A DNA stretch of 64,000 nucleotides from contig CAIMDG010000002.1 of assembly GCA_903839725.1 (NCBI GenBank), positions 1,078 through 65,077 on the forward strand. Reading direction: 5' to 3'. Within the stretch, counting starts at the first letter, position 1. The number at the start of each line of letters is the position of its first letter. Made by a program: the position numbers and the translations under genes. The DNA comes from an uncultured bacterium. Its GTDB lineage: Bacteria; Patescibacteriota; Minisyncoccia; Phycocordibacterales; PALSA-1337. The notes beneath the pieces were generated by a model that was given only the letters and a program-made list of their open reading frames with translations, did no database searches and was not told where the DNA came from. Below, in pieces: positions 4,656 to 63,903 of the stretch.

Positions 4656-6170
4656 TTAACGTACACATCGAGCATATCTCAAATTATATTTATCATATGT
4701 TTCTATTTGTGGTGAACAACTAGTGGTTGAGAGCATCGGTACTCCATTTGCCCCCATAGACCACGATTTAGAACATGCCCATGCAAAACCACTTCTTCCT
4801 GAAAATTCTTCACTCGTCCAATACGGTGCAGTTTGTGTTGCTGATAACATTTTTGGTTGTACCAATGAGCCATCTTGCAGACCAGTCTGAAGCTCAGCTC
4901 GTGTAGGTAAATGCCATCCCGTCGTACCTCCACTACTTACACCAAAATTTGGGTCCGAACAAGTGCTTAAAGCATAATTCCATGAAGCAGAATTATACTG
5001 ACTAAAATCATATATAGACCACTTCGGTGCAAAGTACGCAACAACTGTTCGTGGAACACTCATGTCAACAACACACGTAGGATTGGTACCGGAAGAAGCA
5101 CAGTCACCTGCCCATCCATCAAAGAGACTAGCGTATGATGTTGATGCTGTAAGAGTAACTGATCCTGAGATTGTCGCCGAACAAGGATACTTGGATCCAA
5201 AAGAACCACTATTTTGACAATTGATACCACCGACCGAACTCGTAATAGTTCCGCCACCACCAAGTGATGAATAAGCTCCAGGACCTGGGAAACTAGGTAA
5301 ACCTGTCGTACTCACAGTAAGTAATTGTGTAACCGGCGCCGTCACAACTGTCTGCGTTGAAGCTGAAATCTGAGAATTAGACCCTGTCAAAGTCACGACA
5401 ATAGTGTAAGTACCCGCAGCTGCATATGCATGATAGGCATCAAACTTTGTACTTGATGATATAAGAAGATCACTTGTTGAATCTCCCCAATCATACGAAT
5501 ATGTCAGTGTAATCCCTGCTGGATTACGAACACTTGCAGTCCATGTTCCAGAAACACCAGACAAGATGGTAGAAGGTCCAGTAAAACCAGTGATTCCTGG
5601 TTGGATAACAATATTCGCAATTGGATATCCTCCATTTGGATACAATGCGGTGTTTTCTTCACCAATATATGTTGGAACAATCACAGGATCAGTAACCGGA
5701 TCAGCAGACTTGAACTCACTAACATAGTTGAATTCAGCTGTTGGTGTGATTGCTACAGTTGTACCGTTAGCTCCTGGGGTTACACCTGTTGTTGGTGCAG
5801 TTACGTAGGTATATTCAAGGCCATTGGTATTGATCATGTCGACAGGAATATGAGAGATGTATCCACCATCTACGAGAGGTTTGAGAACACCTGATTCCAA
5901 ATCACCTTTACATACATATGAAGTTGTTCCACCGATAGTCTGAGCATTACAACCTGCTACACCAGCACCTGATGGTACACCGCCATGGTCTGTTGCATAC
6001 AAAGCGAGTGCATTACGTACTTGCAAAGCACTTGATTGACGTGCAGAATCACGACCACTTGCTTGAGCAGCTCTGACTCCCACCAAAATCACTGAGGCAA
6101 GTGAGGCAATAATCGAGATAACAACCATAATTTCGATGAGGGTGAATCCGGTACGTAATGTGTGCTTCAT
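4656..6170 (-). CDS. Type IV pilin-like protein paralog with PKD-like repeat and C-terminal DUF1566/Lcl-like domain
   Basis: N-terminus TGFTLIEIMVVISIIASLASVILVGVRAAQASGRD is nearly identical to the neighbouring gene for about 165 aa. YSYDWGDSTS PKD-like. C-terminal WHLPTRAELQTGLQDGS...YWTSEEF is DUF1566-like. Confidence 0.8.
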   Translation of the reverse strand: MKHTLRTGFTLIEIMVVISIIASLASVILVGVRAAQASGRDSARQSSALQVRNALALYATDHGGVPSGAGVAGCNAQTIGGTTSYVCKGDLESGVLKPLVDGGYISHIPVDMINTNGLEYTYVTAPTTGVTPGANGTTVAITPTAEFNYVSEFKSADPVTDPVIVPTYIGEENTALYPNGGYPIANIVIQPGITGFTGPSTILSGVSGTWTASVRNPAGITLTYSYDWGDSTSDLLISSSTKFDAYHAYAAAGTYTIVVTLTGSNSQISASTQTVVTAPVTQLLTVSTTGLPSFPGPGAYSSLGGGGTITSSVGGINCQNSGSFGSKYPCSATISGSVTLTASTSYASLFDGWAGDCASSGTNPTCVVDMSVPRTVVAYFAPKWSIYDFSQYNSASWNYALSTCSDPNFGVSSGGTTGWHLPTRAELQTGLQDGSLVQPKMLSATQTAPYWTSEEFSGRSGFAWACSKSWSMGANGVPMLSTTSCSPQIETYDKYNLRYARCVR

Positions 6171-8729: not shown

Positions 8730-9581
8730 ATGGAACCAAAACCAACCAATCCACTCGTAAATCTTCCTGGTGCAATCATCATCGCTGCAGCCATCATTGC
8801 AATCGCCATCATCTGGGCAAAGCAACCTATTCCAAAACCAGTTGTTGCCGAACCTGCTGCCACAAATAAAAACATTGTCACTCTTTCACCGGTCAAAACT
8901 ACTGAACATGTTCTCGGCAATCCAGCAGCAGCTATTGTATTTGTTGAATTCTCGGACCCATCATGCCCATACTGCAAAAACTTTAACCCAACAATGGAGG
9001 ACGTTATAACAAAATATGGAGCAACGGGAGATGTTGCATGGGTCTATCGCCATTATCCACTTGATAAACCTGATGCAAATGGAAATGTTCTTCATGCCAA
9101 CTCAGGACAACAAGCAGAAGCACTCGAGTGTTCTGCATCACTCGGTGGTAATGCAAAATTCTGGGAATTTGAAAAAGCATGGTATGCATCTATCCCTCTC
9201 GATGGTGCTGGAAGATCAAGTACAGTAGACAAACAAGAGATTCTCAAAGTTGCAAAAAATGTTGGTCTCGACACTGTTGCTTTCAACGACTGTATCGCAA
9301 ACAATCGCTTCAAAGATGTTATTGATGCAAACTTCCTTGATGGTGTAAATGCAGGGGTTAATGGTACACCTTCAAGTTTCCTTGTTCTCAGTAAGCCAGC
9401 TGGTGCTTTTGTCGAAAAGTTCATCTCAAGTGCTACACTCCAATATCGTTTGAGTGCCGATCTACTCACACTGAGTGGTGACAAAAAAATTATCTCTATG
9501 AATGGAGCAATGCCTGCACCACTCGTTAAAAGTTTGATAGAAGCAATTCTTACAGAAAGAAAGGCTTCTGTTACTCAGTAA
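8730..9581 (+). CDS. Membrane-anchored DsbA-family thiol:disulfide oxidoreductase
   Basis: N-terminal TM helix, then FVEFSDPSCPYCKNF (thioredoxin-fold CxxC active site). DsbA-like length. Confidence 0.7.
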   Translation: MEPKPTNPLVNLPGAIIIAAAIIAIAIIWAKQPIPKPVVAEPAATNKNIVTLSPVKTTEHVLGNPAAAIVFVEFSDPSCPYCKNFNPTMEDVITKYGATGDVAWVYRHYPLDKPDANGNVLHANSGQQAEALECSASLGGNAKFWEFEKAWYASIPLDGAGRSSTVDKQEILKVAKNVGLDTVAFNDCIANNRFKDVIDANFLDGVNAGVNGTPSSFLVLSKPAGAFVEKFISSATLQYRLSADLLTLSGDKKIISMNGAMPAPLVKSLIEAILTERKASVTQ

Positions 9582-9660
9582 ACAAATTACCTTCTTTGAA
9601 TTTAACAAAAAAACGATTCTTCACTGAATTGTTTTTTTGTTAAGTCGATCCTATTCAAAA

Positions 9661-26206: not shown

Positions 26207-26430
26207 GTTGTTGATAAAAATTATTAAACGGACATCGTTGCCATTGAATAGTAGTTTCGCAGAACGTAAAAGGCGCTCTCAGGGACGAGAACGTTAGAGA
26301 TGCACGTTACTGCAATTGAATATTCACTGGGTAGGATTAATGATAGACCTTTCTAATCCCTCGCTGTAAGGCAGAACACAATCTGCGAAGTTAGGAGAAC
26401 CCTATCATATAGGCAGAGAAAGTCAAGTAA

Positions 26431-26554
26431 ACAAGGCGGGAGGGGTGTGCATACTCATTTTCTGCACTAGTTTAGAGACATGTACATTACACCACGTACC
26501 TCGATGTTTACAAACTTGTGCAGAAAATGAGTATGCACACCCCTCCCGCCTTGT
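26431..26554. repeat. Palindromic element copy 2: 37-bp perfect inverted repeat around the conserved core in inverted orientation
   Basis: acaaggcgggaggggtgtgcatactcattttctgcac / gtgcagaaaatgagtatgcacacccctcccgccttgt are exact reverse complements. The core tagtttagagacatgtacattacaccacgtacctcgatgtttacaaactt is the reverse complement (about 90% identity) of the copy 1 and copy 3 core. Confidence 0.85.
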
Positions 26555-26665
26555 TTGAAATGACCTGCAATTAGGTCTGCTATTACCAATATATTGACAT
26601 CATACAATTAATATGATTATATTTCATCAAACAACCGAACATTACCAACAAGAAAGGCTACTACT

Positions 26666-29273: not shown

Positions 29274-29321
29274 ATGTGGGTGAAAGCTTATCAGAATCGA
29301 TAATAAAACGCAAGATGTAGA

Positions 29322-29437
29322 GGCACACAGGGTACATGCACTCATTTCTCGCACAAGTTTGTAAACATTGTGGTACGCGGTGTAATGTACATGTCTCTAA
29401 ACTTGTGCGAGAAATGAGTGCATGTACCCTGTGTGCC
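29322..29437. repeat. Palindromic element copy 3: 38-bp perfect inverted repeat (29322-29359 / 29400-29437) around a 40-nt core; outer imperfect inverted repeat 29303-29456
   Basis: ggcacacagggtacatgcactcatttctcgcacaagtt / aacttgtgcgagaaatgagtgcatgtaccctgtgtgcc are exact reverse complements. The core tgtaaacattgtggtacgcggtgtaatgtacatgtctcta differs from copy 1 at one base. Confidence 0.85.
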
Positions 29438-29481
29438 CTGCTACTTTGCGTTTTATATAGTTCTGATATACTTTCACCATT

Positions 29482-57180: not shown

Positions 57181-59235
57181 ATGAACCCAATAACACCACA
57201 ACCCAATAACGCTCCCGAAGCCAAGAAGACGACACCAGCAGGTGCACCTCGTCCTACCGGACAGACGCATAGTCGTAATGCATTCTTCCATAAGCATCGT
57301 CATTCGAATTCAACTCTTCATACCCGCACACTTCGTGCACCAGAATCCCCTGCACGCGCAAGTTCATCTACGTCACAGCACGGAGCTGCTGCGCCTCGTA
57401 TGGTGCTCGGTAAAGGTGCTCACAAGCATCCAGAAGTAGTGAAACATATTGCAGGCGCTCGCATGCAAATCGTCCGCCCAGATGCTGCTCGACCAATGCG
57501 TCGCAGTACTCCAAAACCTCTCGTACGTCGTGAGGGAGACACAATTCCTGCTCCTGCAGCTGATACCGTTCGTATCATTCCTCTTGGTGGTGTTGAGGAA
57601 ATCGGCAAGAATATGACCGCCATCGAATATGGTGGTGAAATTATCGTTATTGATATTGGGTTCGGATTCCGTGATGAAACTACACCAGGTATCGATTTCA
57701 TATTGCCCAATACAAAATATCTCGAAGAAAGACAAGATAAAGTTCGTGCAGTTATTATTACACACGGACACTTGGACCATATCGGAGGTATTCCATTCGT
57801 CATGCCACGTATAGGCAATCCACCGATCTATACTCGTCTACTTACCTCTGTACTTATTTCAAAGCGCCAAGAGGAATTCCCTCATGTACCGAAGCTCAAC
57901 ATCAAGATTGTTGAGAAAAATGAAACTATTACTGTTGGTAAGCTCCGCATCAAATTCTTCGCAGTGACCCACACGATTCCTGATGCTATGGGAGTTATCA
58001 TTGAGACTCCATATGGATCAATCGTTCACACAGGAGACTTGAAACTCGACCACGTCGCTGGTGTTCCTACGGAAGAGGAAGAGGCCGAATATGATCGCGT
58101 ATTCAAGAATGAAAAAGTACTCATGCTCATGGCTGACTCAACCAACGTCGAAAACCCAGGCTTCTCTATTCCTGAAAAGACTGTTCACAAAAATATCGAG
58201 GAAATCATTCGTACAGTTCAGGGTCGTCTCATCATCAGTACATTCTCATCCCTTCTTGAACGCTTGCTCAAGATCGTTGAATTCGCGGAGAAATACAATA
58301 AAAAAGTTATTGTCGAAGGACGAAGTCTCAAACAAAATATTGAAATCTGTAAACATATTGGTCTTCTCAAAGCCAAAAAAGAAACCCTCATTTCAAGTGA
58401 TGATATAGACAGTTACCCACCAGACCGTATCATCATTCTTGCTACAGGAGCTCAAGGCGATGAATTCGGAGCTATCATGCGCATGTCGAACAAAACACAT
58501 ACCAAGATTTCCATCAACCCTCGCGATACCATCATGCTCTCTTCATCAGTTGTCCCTGGCAATGAACGTGCAGTGCAGAAGCTCAAAGATAACCTTTCAC
58601 GCCAAGGTGCAAAGATTATCCACTATCGTATGGCAGAAATTCACTCATCTGGTCACGCCAATCGTGATGAGACAGCCTGGATTCATCGCAAGATACATCC
58701 GAAGTTCTTCATGCCTGTGCACGGCTATCACTACATGCTCCGCGTTCATGCAGATATTGCAAAGGAGACCAATGGTCTCACCGAAGCTGATGTTGTCATT
58801 CCAGACAATGGAAGTGTTATCGAAATTCAAAATGCCGGAACCAAGCTCGCTCGTCTCAAAGAGAAGGCTGCTTCAGGACTCGTGCTTGTGGATGGATTCT
58901 CTGTCGGAGATGTGCAGGATGTTGTCATTCGTGACCGTCAGGCCCTCGCCAAGGATGGTATATTCATCATCTTCGGTATCATGAATGGTCAGACTGGTAA
59001 ACTCAAAAAGTCTCCTGATATCATCTCTCGTGGTTTCGTCTATCTCCGTGAGTCACAAGATTTGCTCCATGAAGTACGTCTCCTCATCAAAGATACTGTT
59101 GAAAAGTCAGCTCGTGGACAAAATCCGATCAACATTGATTTCATTAAAGACAATGTCACTGACGCCGTCGCCAAATTCTTGATGCAAAAGACTGCAAAGA
59201 GACCGATGGTTATCCCCGTTATCCTTACTATATAA
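57181..59235 (+). CDS. rnj: Ribonuclease J with about 125-aa basic/His-rich N-terminal extension
   Basis: IIPLGGVEEIGKNMT ... ITHGHLDHIGG metallo-beta-lactamase motifs, beta-CASP and C-terminal domain. N-terminal 125 aa is low-complexity (R/K/H/P/A-rich). Confidence 0.85.
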   Translation: MNPITPQPNNAPEAKKTTPAGAPRPTGQTHSRNAFFHKHRHSNSTLHTRTLRAPESPARASSSTSQHGAAAPRMVLGKGAHKHPEVVKHIAGARMQIVRPDAARPMRRSTPKPLVRREGDTIPAPAADTVRIIPLGGVEEIGKNMTAIEYGGEIIVIDIGFGFRDETTPGIDFILPNTKYLEERQDKVRAVIITHGHLDHIGGIPFVMPRIGNPPIYTRLLTSVLISKRQEEFPHVPKLNIKIVEKNETITVGKLRIKFFAVTHTIPDAMGVIIETPYGSIVHTGDLKLDHVAGVPTEEEEAEYDRVFKNEKVLMLMADSTNVENPGFSIPEKTVHKNIEEIIRTVQGRLIISTFSSLLERLLKIVEFAEKYNKKVIVEGRSLKQNIEICKHIGLLKAKKETLISSDDIDSYPPDRIIILATGAQGDEFGAIMRMSNKTHTKISINPRDTIMLSSSVVPGNERAVQKLKDNLSRQGAKIIHYRMAEIHSSGHANRDETAWIHRKIHPKFFMPVHGYHYMLRVHADIAKETNGLTEADVVIPDNGSVIEIQNAGTKLARLKEKAASGLVLVDGFSVGDVQDVVIRDRQALAKDGIFIIFGIMNGQTGKLKKSPDIISRGFVYLRESQDLLHEVRLLIKDTVEKSARGQNPINIDFIKDNVTDAVAKFLMQKTAKRPMVIPVILTI

Positions 59236-59260
59236 TTCACAGAAACAATAAAAACCGCCA

Positions 59261-59291
59261 CAGCGATGTGGCGGTTTTTAGTATAAAGGAA
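59261..59291 (+). terminator. Rho-independent terminator downstream of rnj
   Basis: aaaaaccgccacagcgatgtggcggttttta. Confidence 0.75.
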
Positions 59292-59306: not shown

Positions 59307-59428
59307 AGAACAGACGTAATATGCACGGTTTTTAAGACCCTTCGGAGCCACGAAGAGTGGCGAGAATGAGTGCGCGTTCAGCAGAACGCGACACGTGTCT
59401 TAAAAACCGTGCATATTACGTCTGTTCT
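59307..59428. repeat. 122-bp palindromic element with nested internal hairpins (candidate structured ncRNA)
   Basis: 32-bp perfect inverted repeat agaacagacgtaatatgcacggtttttaagac / gtcttaaaaaccgtgcatattacgtctgttct enclosing 58 nt with two sub-hairpins (cttcg-gagcca-cgaag and cgcgttc-agca-gaacgcg). Confidence 0.7.
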
Positions 59429-59442
59429 AAACCAAAAACGTA

Positions 59443-60822
59443 CTACAACTGGTTTATATTCTGCTGAATTATATTCGCCTGATTTATTGCATTGGTACCA
59501 TACCCAGCAATCGCTCTTGATTTAGTACATGAACTACCTGAATAATATTTACATGCAGCATTTCTTTCGGCTGTATATCCACCATTTCCTGCACCAAGAT
59601 CATCTAGATACAATGCTGAAGCCATGAATGCATGCGCAGGGTTCCATGGGTTTGGTTCGTCAGCTATACCAAGAGCTCCACGAAGACGATCGGTAAACAA
59701 TGCCCACGTTGAAGGAATAAACTGCGCAGGACCCATCGCACCTCCCCAACCACCGACAGATGCCTGCTGACATGAAACAACTGTCTTCATCGGATCAAAA
59801 CCAAGTGATTTCGTAATTTCCAAGAATGGTTGAATGTCACGAGTTGGTTTCATAACATTCGGACTGAAACTCCCTGTCTTAATATTGATGCCATCTCCAG
59901 TTGAAAGATTTGAAATATAACACTGACCAACGTTCGCCCCGAGAGCTGATTCATTCGTAAGGATGGCGAGCAAGAATGCAGGTCGTACACCAGTCTTCGC
60001 TGATGCAGCTTGTGCATAGGTGAGAGCCTGACCAAACGGAATCTTTACTCCACCAGCCAATGGGAATAATGCCGCACGAATCTTCGCAGCTTGTGATGCC
60101 TTTTGCGCAGCAAGAGATGAGTACGCCTTTTCATTATCCTTACTCAGTGCAAGAAGTTGTTTCTGGGTCTTCTTATCAGTCTCTATATTCTTTTGTTGCT
60201 GTTGAATAATATATCGCGCATCCATTTCAGTATTTTGTCGCACTTCAAGAGCGTCTTTTTCAGCGGTAGTACTTGCTTGATCTGTGCGAAGTTGTTCGAA
60301 TACTGTTTTTAAACTTTCTTGCACAGACTGAAATGTATCAAGATCTTGGAAGAAACCAGCCACTGATGTTTGAGATAAAGCAACTTCAGGGAATGAGTAT
60401 GCATCGACTTCATTTGTCTTGCGCATAATGGCGGCGAGAGTCGCTTTGCCTGAATCAATACGACTTTCTAAATCATCAATATGAGCTTGCTTCTGAGTAA
60501 TGTTATTACTCAATGTTTGTATCAAGAGATTCTTTGCTTTTATTTGTAGTTCAGCCGCCTTGATCTTTGCATCAAGCACTGCAATATCATTCGTCAACGA
60601 AGAACTCTTGGCTTGAGCGGCAGTGAGTTGATCTTGAGCTGCCTGATATTCAGCATTACATGCATTGTATACAGCCGTCAGACGGTCTTTACGTTGCTGA
60701 GAACTCTCACCTGGCAATGAGTCAGGCGCCTCACTACATGTCACCGCTTGTGCATGTGCAAAAAAAGGTGTGGTGAACAATAAGAAAACCGCCAGAACGG
60801 TGAAGCGAACATGCATTTTCAT
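59443..60822 (-). CDS. Secreted coiled-coil protein with C-terminal MltB-like lytic transglycosylase domain
   Basis: Signal peptide, about 230-aa coiled-coil. C-terminal ...AILTNESALG...GAMGPAQFIPSTW motif of the family-3 (MltB/Slt35-like) lytic transglycosylases. Confidence 0.6.
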   Translation of the reverse strand: MKMHVRFTVLAVFLLFTTPFFAHAQAVTCSEAPDSLPGESSQQRKDRLTAVYNACNAEYQAAQDQLTAAQAKSSSLTNDIAVLDAKIKAAELQIKAKNLLIQTLSNNITQKQAHIDDLESRIDSGKATLAAIMRKTNEVDAYSFPEVALSQTSVAGFFQDLDTFQSVQESLKTVFEQLRTDQASTTAEKDALEVRQNTEMDARYIIQQQQKNIETDKKTQKQLLALSKDNEKAYSSLAAQKASQAAKIRAALFPLAGGVKIPFGQALTYAQAASAKTGVRPAFLLAILTNESALGANVGQCYISNLSTGDGINIKTGSFSPNVMKPTRDIQPFLEITKSLGFDPMKTVVSCQQASVGGWGGAMGPAQFIPSTWALFTDRLRGALGIADEPNPWNPAHAFMASALYLDDLGAGNGGYTAERNAACKYYSGSSCTKSRAIAGYGTNAINQANIIQQNINQL

Positions 60823-63783: not shown

Positions 63784-63903
63784 GCGAAGCAGGAGGGTGT
63801 GTACTCATTTTTCTCTTATAGGTTAGAGGCCCTCACATCACTCCGCATACCACATTGTTTTTAACCTATGAGAGAAAAATGAGTACACACCCTCCTGCTT
63901 CGC
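63784..63903. repeat. Palindromic element copy 4: 42-bp inverted repeat (1 mismatch) with homologous arms but a different 36-nt core
   Basis: gcgaagcaggagggtgtgtactcatttttctcttataggtta / taacctatgagagaaaaatgagtacacaccctcctgcttcgc. Arms share the GGGTGTG.ACTCATTTTC motif with copies 1-3. Core gaggccctcacatcactccgcataccacattgtttt. Confidence 0.8.

Follow-up and report, generated by a model that had tools for sequence, protein, structure and literature searches.

The 64,000-nt stretch analysed here, called the window below, comes from an uncultured bacterium of the Patescibacteriota (contig CAIMDG010000002.1 of assembly GCA_903839725.1). At 59307-59428 it carries a perfect inverted repeat, located between the convergent genes for RNase J (rnj) and an SLT-domain transglycosylase (SLT). 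The original prediction, made from the sequence of the window, described a perfect 32-bp inverted repeat around 58 nt, situated after the rnj terminator. This context is borne out by the open reading frames (ORFs), the Pfam domains and a terminator scan, and the two 32-nt arms, 100% complementary, lie at exactly the coordinates first given. The element is a divergent but clear member of an old and widespread family of hairpins in Parcubacteria/Paceibacteria, absent from Rfam 15 and from the literature searched here. The features of the locus are the following.

57181-59235, + strand: RNase J gene (rnj), with Pfam domains RNase_J_b_CASP, RNase_J_C and Lactamase_B
59249-59280, either strand: bidirectional intrinsic terminator, outside the element and common to rnj and the SLT gene; 14-bp perfect stem with A-tract and T-tract (terminator scan)
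59307-59338, + strand: 5' arm of the long stem P1, 32 nt; perfect inverted repeat, sequence not conserved in the family
59339-59340, + strand: C59339, which pairs with G59395, and C59340, the single-nt junction J1/2 (covariance-model alignment)
59341-59366, + strand: P2 arm (fold and covariance-model alignment)
59341-59343 and 59364-59366, + strand: P2a, TTC/GAA, then an extra G59344
59345-59346 opposite 59362-59363, + strand: tandem G·A of P2; the GA/GA flanks are near-invariant in the family, in columns that the search pattern given below does not fix
59347-59351 and 59357-59361, + strand: P2b, GCCAC/GTGGC, with the loop GAAGA at 59352-59356
59367-59369, + strand: J2/3, TGA (family consensus CGA)
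59370-59394, + strand: P3 arm, with P3a GTG/CAC, P3b CGCGTTC/GAACGCG, the AGCA tetraloop at 59380-59383 and the bulged A59391 (structural scan and covariance-model alignment)
59395-59396, + strand: G59395, which pairs with C59339, and the bulged T59396 (family consensus G-T-G)
59397-59428, + strand: 3' arm of P1; perfect inverted repeat
59443-60822, - strand: SLT-domain transglycosylase gene (Pfam SLT_2), its stop codon 14 nt from the 3' arm of the element

The terminator is separated by 26 nt from the 5' side of the element, whose flanks are GAGTAG and AAACCA. As had been noted, the element has no U-tract of its own, and no T-run is present in the 3' flank AAACCAAAAACG. It lacks the G+C-rich stem followed by a T-run that defines an intrinsic terminator, and the terminator scan finds only 59249-59280.

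The + strand of the element folds with a minimum free energy of -76.3 kcal/mol, compared to -29.3 ± 3.5 kcal/mol in dinucleotide shuffles (n = 200, none as good; z = -13.6). The value for the - strand, -75.1 kcal/mol, is close to this. The arm sequence has no third site in the window at up to 3 mismatches, with 0.00 matches expected from shuffles. Both inner hairpins of the original prediction, with stems of 5 bp and 7 bp, exist (59347-59351/59357-59361 and 59373-59379/59384-59390), and further detail can be added to them. The 7-bp stem gains three pairs (59370-59372/59392-59394) across the bulged A59391, and the 5-bp hairpin is extended by the tandem G·A and the 3-bp helix TTC/GAA (59341-59343/59364-59366). 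A C59339-G59395 pair, which has its counterpart in 87 of 90 family members, closes the junction across the bulged T59396. The covariance models R1 and R2 treat the inner ten pairs of the long stem as P1. The three-way-junction-like fold first seen in the window is now backed by a family of more than 100 copies with compensatory changes in all four helices, by strand-specific mismatches and by purifying selection on the core at the rnj/SLT locus.

Relatives of the element are found both at the same locus and far from it. In what follows W is the window copy, and L-numbers denote the loci of relatives and metagenomes that were compared. By its RNase J relatives the window belongs to the Patescibacteria/Parcubacteria (Paceibacteria, Taylorbacteria-like) and comes from a freshwater metagenome-assembled genome. 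The closest species representative by RNase J is L006, at ~92-93% amino-acid identity (92%; 92.8% over the alignment). It carries the same architecture at the same spot, lying between the terminator of rnj and the stop codon of SLT; the stems of the two elements are wholly different, and the junction and loop nucleotides are identical. A structural scan (3 bp, a bulged A, 7 bp and an AGCA loop) detects more copies, at other positions and in other Parcubacteria. The pattern CGAGGA-N7-ASCA-N7-ATCCGTG, used to scan metagenomes, occurs in at least 120 stretches; among the 124 matches listed, the seven unspecified pairs (P3b) are fully paired in 101. Upstream of the pattern, where nothing is constrained, nearly all of the matches listed share C-TTGNGA-(4-bp hairpin with loop GAC(T)G)-GAGCA, which is followed by a long stem that is seldom alike in two copies. 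The copies, well over 100, belong to Parcubacteria (Patescibacteria) from groundwater, lakes, peat and soil.

A family copy is a rod. The stem P1, of free sequence and about 11-45 bp in the sample, is capped by a three-way junction of ~58 nt whose unpaired nucleotides are nearly invariant; P2 is flanked by tandem G·A, and P3 is a hairpin of 10 bp that has an AGCA loop and one bulged A. The median arm length in the family is 18-19 bp, the longest arms measure 44 bp, and the 32 perfect pairs in the window lie in the upper quartile. The consensus set of unpaired nucleotides consists of T in J1/2, GA/GA around P2b, G-A-C..G in the P2 loop, YGA in J2/3, AGCA, the bulged A and G-T-G. The window copy has 15 of these 17 nucleotides, the exceptions being the loop GAAGA (not GAC(T)G) and TGA (not CGA).

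Membership of the window copy was assessed with R2, a covariance model of 78 positions derived from 101 metagenome copies, with the window sequence and its orthologues left out. It matches the window at 59327-59408 with 55.5 bits (E = 7.7e-13) over model positions 1-78 of 78. The next-best R2 match in the window reaches only 14.8 bits, hence the element is single copy in these 64 kb. The window copy escapes a sequence-only profile hidden Markov model (HMM) of 86 canonical copies, and its membership thus rests on structure and invariant nucleotides. In rnj-centred loci that were chosen independently of the element (717 kb, 80 species), 8 copies are detected at E < 1e-3; the L052 copy among them (73% RNase J identity) also lies just downstream of rnj.

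A covariance search had been proposed as a check on the prediction. Rfam 15 (4227 models) has no match on either the window copy or a canonical copy, at the gathering threshold or at E <= 10. The element has no blastn match in phage and plasmid collections. Among 185,579 genomes representing species, none contains an exact 20-mer of the arm, which is therefore no repeat in them. In viral contigs the core pattern has one match, judged to be chance, in a G+C-rich coding region.

The fold is kept by compensatory change. In an alignment of 90 cores (A2) and in the model-derived alignment of 101 copies (A3), 94% of the cells are paired, and both sides vary in 25-26 of the 28 modelled pairs. Covariation scores 0.55, compared to 0.16-0.17 in shuffles (0 of 500 reach 0.55) and at most 0.155 with partners slid by 1-3 columns; the aligned sequences are related, with an effective number of ~3. 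The search pattern fixes the columns of GTG, the loop, the bulge and P3a and leaves those of P1, P2a, P2b, J1/2 and the tandem GA free; P3 and junction columns are independent only in the copies found with the covariance model (W, L052, L063, L065 and L075). All four modelled pairs of P2b change on both sides, and 97-98% are paired. The unpaired columns outside the pattern are near-invariant as well: T16 in 86 of 90 cores, G20 in 87, A21 in 89, G27 in 89, A28 in 77, C29 in 86, G32 in 88, G37 in 85 and A39 in 89. The core is as conserved as that of a ribozyme or riboswitch aptamer and is covered by no known model. Genomes of the candidate phyla radiation are tiny and tightly packed and have very few described non-coding elements; this family offers a covariation-supported target for RNA biochemistry in them.

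A large subclass of the family has a second module. This is a G·A-rich internal loop (5' CGTTGAAGGC / 3' GCCGAGAAAG) at 18-19 bp from the junction, next to which comes an outer helix AAACTC/GAGTTT, so that the molecule extends to ~150-170 nt (e.g., L113:1060-1220, L092:2270-2440 and L052:5780-5960). The fixed spacing of 18-19 bp suggests that one partner measures both sites. The window copy is without this module.

Mismatches in the stem show which strand folds. Read on the AGCA strand (+ in the window), the inner ten P1 pairs have 33 G·U vs 17 A·C and 56 G·A vs 9 C·U, and the outer stem, extended with symmetric scoring, has 27 G·U vs 4 A·C. Many of the G·A mismatches occur as tandem GA/GA. 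In copies antisense to the adjacent gene (n = 24) the counts are G·U 15, A·C 4, G·A 16 and C·U 1, and in copies sense to it (n = 9) they are G·U 6, A·C 1, G·A 10 and C·U 1. Because the bias is equal in sense and antisense copies, the AGCA strand is the folded strand, whatever the direction of host transcription. This strand bias favours RNA, though not decisively, over single-stranded DNA.

Comparison with sister genomes, another check suggested at the outset, shows that the element is kept in the closest relatives and absent in more distant ones. The rnj/SLT spacers contain the following.

W: terminator and element
L210-L213 (RNase J about 95%): terminator and element
L006 (RNase J about 92-93%): terminator and element
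L207 (RNase J 88%): terminators and an extra 134-aa gene, element absent
L208/L209 (RNase J 86%): one long terminator-like hairpin, element absent
L007, L011, L017, L018 (RNase J 74-82%): short spacer, little or no hairpin
L010, L012, L020, L057 (RNase J 74-81%): unrelated palindromes (L012: 5869-6038)
L009, L013, L014, L016 (RNase J 73-79%): single bidirectional terminator
L024, L026 (RNase J 72-77%): a larger insert bordered by long inverted repeats rich in GA

The element was gained in a recent ancestor of the window organism and its closest relatives, and since then the core at this locus has been under purifying selection while the stem drifts at near the synonymous rate. W and L210 share 95.2% amino-acid identity in RNase J, with 55.8% identity at 4-fold sites (synonymous sites 44% diverged). 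In the core, 61 of 64 bases are identical (95%). In P1, 10 of the 32 pairs have been swapped for other Watson-Crick pairs and 2 more are altered on one arm only (G·U and C·A in L210). None of the 18 P2/P3 pairs is changed on both sides, which differs from P1 at p ~0.006 (hypergeometric, our own arithmetic). The element is thus a natural example of stems that drift near the synonymous rate while remaining paired. The stems of the rnj/SLT terminators, too, have been nearly all replaced and are still paired (window 59249-59280 vs L210:3567-3601 and L006:6065-6105). Since these turn over with compensation as well, rapid compensated drift of hairpins, near the synonymous rate, is a feature of this lineage.

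The outer arm ends of W and L210, GCAAGA(A)CA, recur in L006, whose P2b/P3, however, is the canonical variant of distant genomes; its core may thus have been replaced or converted from another copy. Insertion of the core into loops of existing terminators was considered and rejected, because in W, L210 and L006 the element sits beside an intact terminator, and that terminator stands alone in relatives. Nor is there any need for arms made anew from target DNA at each insertion, given the whole-hairpin duplicates (L143, L052) and the drift of the arms with compensation (W/L210).

The spacer is a hot spot for unrelated palindromic insertions (L010, L012, L020, L024, L026 and L057). In L024 (5968-6446), the GA-rich inverted repeats are ~40 nt long and enclose an ORF of 124 aa with a Pfam match to 23S_rRNA_IVP (E = 2e-32) and a weak one to bAvd; this is an intervening-sequence-type protein gene outside any rRNA gene.

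Assemblies tend to break in these hairpins. Four of five public contigs examined that have an identical rnj (L001, L003, L004 and L005) end 30, 83, 45 and 30 nt into the element, and five metagenome copies (L112, L152, L176, L179 and L206) are likewise cut by contig ends. Because assemblers break there, the elements are probably under-counted in metagenome-assembled genomes, a practical warning for users of public assemblies.

Copies are found preferentially at gene 3' ends. In 32 copies an opposite-strand gene has its stop codon no more than 60 nt from the 3' side, and in 15 a same-strand gene has its stop codon equally near the 5' side; these 47 copies beside stop codons compare with 17 beside gene starts. 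Orientation relative to neighbours is balanced overall. Most copies are apparently the sole large hairpin in their intergenic region, according to a crude scan that missed known A/T-paired terminators. Copy density ranges from one in the 64-kb window to 5 in 13 kb (L133). Where two copies are close (<500 nt), they are back-to-back in 6 of 6 cases, the first on the - strand and the second on the + strand with their 5' sides facing.

L133: 2340(-) and 2457(+)
L127: 2985(-) and 3120(+)
L159: 4749(-) and 4855(+)
L145: 1062(-) and 1182(+)
L158: 1802(-) and 1930(+)
L146: 662(-) and 1149(+)

In the L159 pair both elements have the stop codon of a gene immediately at their 3' side, and a seventh back-to-back pair, in L140, flanks a tRNA gene. 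The AGCA hairpin module is also seen in tandem or within larger structured regions beside tRNA genes (L163:1700-1940, L140:8970-9460 and L191:1470-1640). Whole hairpins duplicate, as the L143 pair and the L052 pair illustrate. Nearly every copy has arms of its own, of which no more than the innermost 2-4 bp recur. Direct repeats flanking 93 copies do not exceed in length those of shuffled controls (the longest, a single case, has 5 nt), and within 1.5 kb of these copies there is no transposase or recurrent gene, only housekeeping genes with no family in more than 5 loci.

One copy lies in an rRNA gene. The element at L116:5770-5848 is inside the 23S rRNA gene L116:2807-6471 (-), where the whole copy (about 5720-5890) forms an insertion of ~140 nt in the loop of helix 25, at large-subunit (LSU) model positions 583-587 of the Rfam LSU alignment. 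It is antisense to the rRNA and replaces the helix 25 loop, the classical site of intervening sequences (IVSs). Short uncharacterised insertions have been reported at intervening-sequence sites of candidate-phyla-radiation rRNA (PMC11270868). Through the L116 copy, short 23S intervening sequences and intergenic hairpin repeats are connected at the sequence level, and the old question of how intervening sequences arose becomes testable.

Several known systems resemble the family in part. Like 23S rRNA IVSs, its members are extended stem-loops of ~100-170 nt with sporadic occurrence, the L116 member replaces the helix 25 loop as IVSs do, and an IVS-type element with a 23S_rRNA_IVP gene is also present in the rnj/SLT spacer (L024). 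Classical IVSs are insertions in helix 25 or helix 45 of 23S rRNA that are excised by RNase III. In contrast, nearly all family copies, that of the window included, are intergenic, and the family is defined by its three-way-junction apex; to our knowledge no conserved apex of this kind has been described for IVSs. ERIC/IRU, the Correia elements of Neisseria and the pneumococcal BOX/RUP are noncoding hairpin repeats of 100-170 bp that occur at gene ends in both orientations. They are co-transcribed with their neighbours, and some undergo RNase III processing or influence how stable the mRNA is. These have conserved arms and TA or other target duplications, whereas in this family the arms are free, the apex is conserved and there is no duplication. 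REP/REPIN elements, mobilized by RAYT transposases, are persistent, vertically inherited hairpins at gene ends that are recognised by a strand-specific fold and have long-retained orthologues. Their conserved part is a palindrome of 20-40 nt tagged GTAG/CGTC, with a variable spacer, the reverse of the arrangement here. No GTAG/CGTC tag is enriched in the flanks of the copies (GTAG precedes only the orthologues W, L210 and L006), and no RAYT gene is seen near them.

The hammerhead ribozyme has a compact three-way junction, tandem sheared-type G·A by one helix, conserved junction purines and a scattered multi-copy occurrence, all of which recall the family. The strings differ, however (CUUGNGA-(P2b)-GAGCA-CGA-(P3)-GUG in the family vs CUGANGA...GAAA...NUH), and the family has an extra covarying helix, P2a (UGN/GCA). 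No Rfam hammerhead model matches the window copy or a canonical copy at E <= 10. Integron attC sites likewise lie at gene 3' ends and fold as hairpins on one strand, with structure better conserved than sequence, but they conserve basal R and L boxes, vary at the tip and occur in cassette arrays with an integrase, while here the tip is conserved and the base varies. The attC boxes RYYYAAC/GTTRRRY do not occur at the outer ends of the element, AGAACAG and CTGTTCT, and its neighbours are housekeeping genes with no arrays. Signal recognition particle (SRP) RNA, 6S RNA and Y RNA were considered for their rod shape and rejected: the family is multi-copy, has no Rfam match and differs in its motifs.

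The most likely reading of these observations, put forward tentatively from comparative sequence data, is that the element is a structured RNA module maintained by the host at transcript boundaries, and spreading by duplication of the whole hairpin. It would act as RNA whenever transcription crosses it. The long stem would serve as a double-stranded barrier or processing site, blocking 3' exonucleases or allowing RNase III-type cleavage as in 23S IVSs, and would thereby mark the transcript boundary between tightly packed genes. The apex of the AGCA strand would present tandem G·A, an AGNN-type tetraloop and a bulged A, perhaps as a docking site for a hypothetical conserved Parcubacterial factor; the core would be held constant because such a factor would require it. 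In the window, AGCA-strand RNA would be made only by read-through of the rnj terminator, and the opposite strand would be part of the SLT 3' untranslated region (UTR).

Several points weigh against a host RNA module. Orientation is the main difficulty, in that it is the 'wrong' strand that lies in the SLT 3' UTR. The AGCA strand would be weakly transcribed at this locus because a strong bidirectional terminator separates rnj from the element in W, L210 and L006. An mRNA element that acts purely in cis should also keep one orientation; both occur, the rRNA copy is antisense, and copies with the 3' side at an opposite-strand stop codon (32) are twice as frequent as those with the 5' side at a same-strand stop codon (15). 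A search of both flanks and strands found no promoter motif at a fixed distance and no positional signal, and no RNase III signature is present in the window and the loci, where only about two rnc genes are expected. The docking partner is a hypothetical protein. Several of the 'invariant' P3 and junction columns are set by the search pattern itself, and no mismatches are more stable in single-stranded DNA than G·T and G·A, so that the strand bias alone is no proof of RNA. The original prediction had offered a 3'-UTR stabiliser as one possibility. Its position at a gene end agrees with this, but a core specific to one strand in both orientations is left unexplained.

That the family is instead selfish, non-autonomous mobile DNA of the REPIN, IVS or MITE (miniature inverted-repeat transposable element) kind seems rather unlikely, if by no means far-fetched. 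Folded single-stranded DNA of the AGCA strand would be recognised in trans by an enzyme such as an HUH/Y1 transposase or a different structure-specific recombinase, its gene lying elsewhere in the genome, with the three-way junction as recognition site and with gene ends and rRNA helix tips as harmless landing places. Much in the distribution of the copies would suit it: patchy presence at one orthologous spacer that also hosts unrelated palindromes and the L024 23S_rRNA_IVP gene, a copy number from 1 in 64 kb to 5 in 13 kb, whole-hairpin duplicates, the insertion in 23S helix 25, the occurrence of both orientations, a strand bias independent of host transcription direction, and the L006 element with the outer arm ends of W/L210 and a canonical core, as if replaced. 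Against this stand the lack of target-site duplications beyond chance and of any transposase or recurrent gene within 1.5 kb of 93 copies. The arms, being unconserved between copies, are not transposase-binding terminal repeats, and paralogues within a contig are often well diverged, so that there is no sign of recent bursts. A core 95% identical between fixed orthologues at 44% synonymous divergence is unexpected for a dead copy unless it is continually converted. For the distinct MITE of the original prediction in particular, the missing target-site duplication, the unconserved arms and the absence of a nearby transposase are unfavourable, even though the family is dispersed and multi-copy in some genomes. 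A broader idea, in our view unlikely, is that the junction is the active centre of something new. Such a centre might belong to a catalytic RNA that cleaves or inserts itself, or might act as the cis-site of an as yet undescribed kind of mobility, in which entire hairpins, read on one folded strand, would be copied to gene ends and rRNA helix tips and leave no target duplications behind. If true, this would tie the origin of 23S intervening sequences to dispersed genomic elements of the candidate phyla radiation.

Stand-alone small RNA genes, with a rod RNA of ~120-170 nt cut from longer transcripts and acting in trans on a Parcubacterial protein, as its RNA subunit or decoy, like a multi-copy Y-RNA-like or 6S-like family, are a distinctly improbable account. 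The strand-specific structure with non-canonical motifs agrees with it, as do the defined length given by the second module at its fixed 18-19 bp and the conservation of each of the diverged paralogues. But promoter motifs at a fixed distance and terminators are missing, the window copy is without the outer module, the 23S copy is antisense to the rRNA and not expressible as such, and the abutting back-to-back pairs (L159) leave no room for promoters. The small RNA considered in the original prediction fares accordingly: its strand-specific structure is found and a recognisable promoter is not. A new class of self-cleaving ribozyme that uses the compact three-way junction, in which ~17 unpaired nucleotides are near-invariant, to process transcripts where genes end would be very improbable on present sequence comparisons. 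Conservation of junction and loop is typical of catalytic or ligand-binding cores, the tandem G·A is as in the hammerhead, and no protein partner is evident near the copies. Hammerhead and twister ribozymes, too, are scattered in multiple copies and in both orientations. However, no Rfam ribozyme model matches at E <= 10, the hammerhead core is not present, and a closing stem of 20-40 bp is unnecessary for catalysis. An ordinary bidirectional terminator or a palindrome arisen by chance, its core without specific function, is barely credible. The position between convergent genes would fit, as would the finding of the crude scan that most copies stand alone as large hairpins. Terminators, however, need no conserved strand-specific junction, and the window copy is without a T-tract beside a canonical terminator; chance is excluded by the fold z-score, the uniqueness of the arms and the R2 score.

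Other palindromes share some traits with the family. A hairpin of 130 nt at L012:7490-7619 has 31-bp perfect arms; in its apex an AGCA-looped hairpin precedes a G+C-rich one. The covariance model matches only its P3 part (21 bits), and from this layout it may be a permuted relative of the family.

A second, unrelated palindrome family is represented in the window by four copies in 64 kb (1036-1153, 26429-26556, 29303-29456 and 63784-63903). Its inner arms (..ACTCATTTTC..AGTTTGTAAACAT) and 22-nt loop are conserved, the loop being inverted in one copy, and its outer arms are copy-specific, the same layout of conserved apex and variable base as in the element. The covariance models R1 and R2 do not match these palindromes (at most 15 bits). 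The original prediction had pointed to a gagaatgagtg segment of the element that echoes this second family. The similarity itself is real, with GCGAGAA(A)TGAGTGC common to 59360-59375 and 29399-29437 (the right arm of the copy at 29322-29437) at 14 of 15 positions with one indel. Its positions, however, are those of the conserved GA-GCA-CGA-G string of the element's own family and there is no model match, so on the alignment the echo is probably a coincidence. Another hairpin family, with variable arms of 22-23 bp, A/T-rich ends and the conserved apex GAGACGATYGTAAGTCTC, has been observed at L053:7214-7280 and 9575-9642.

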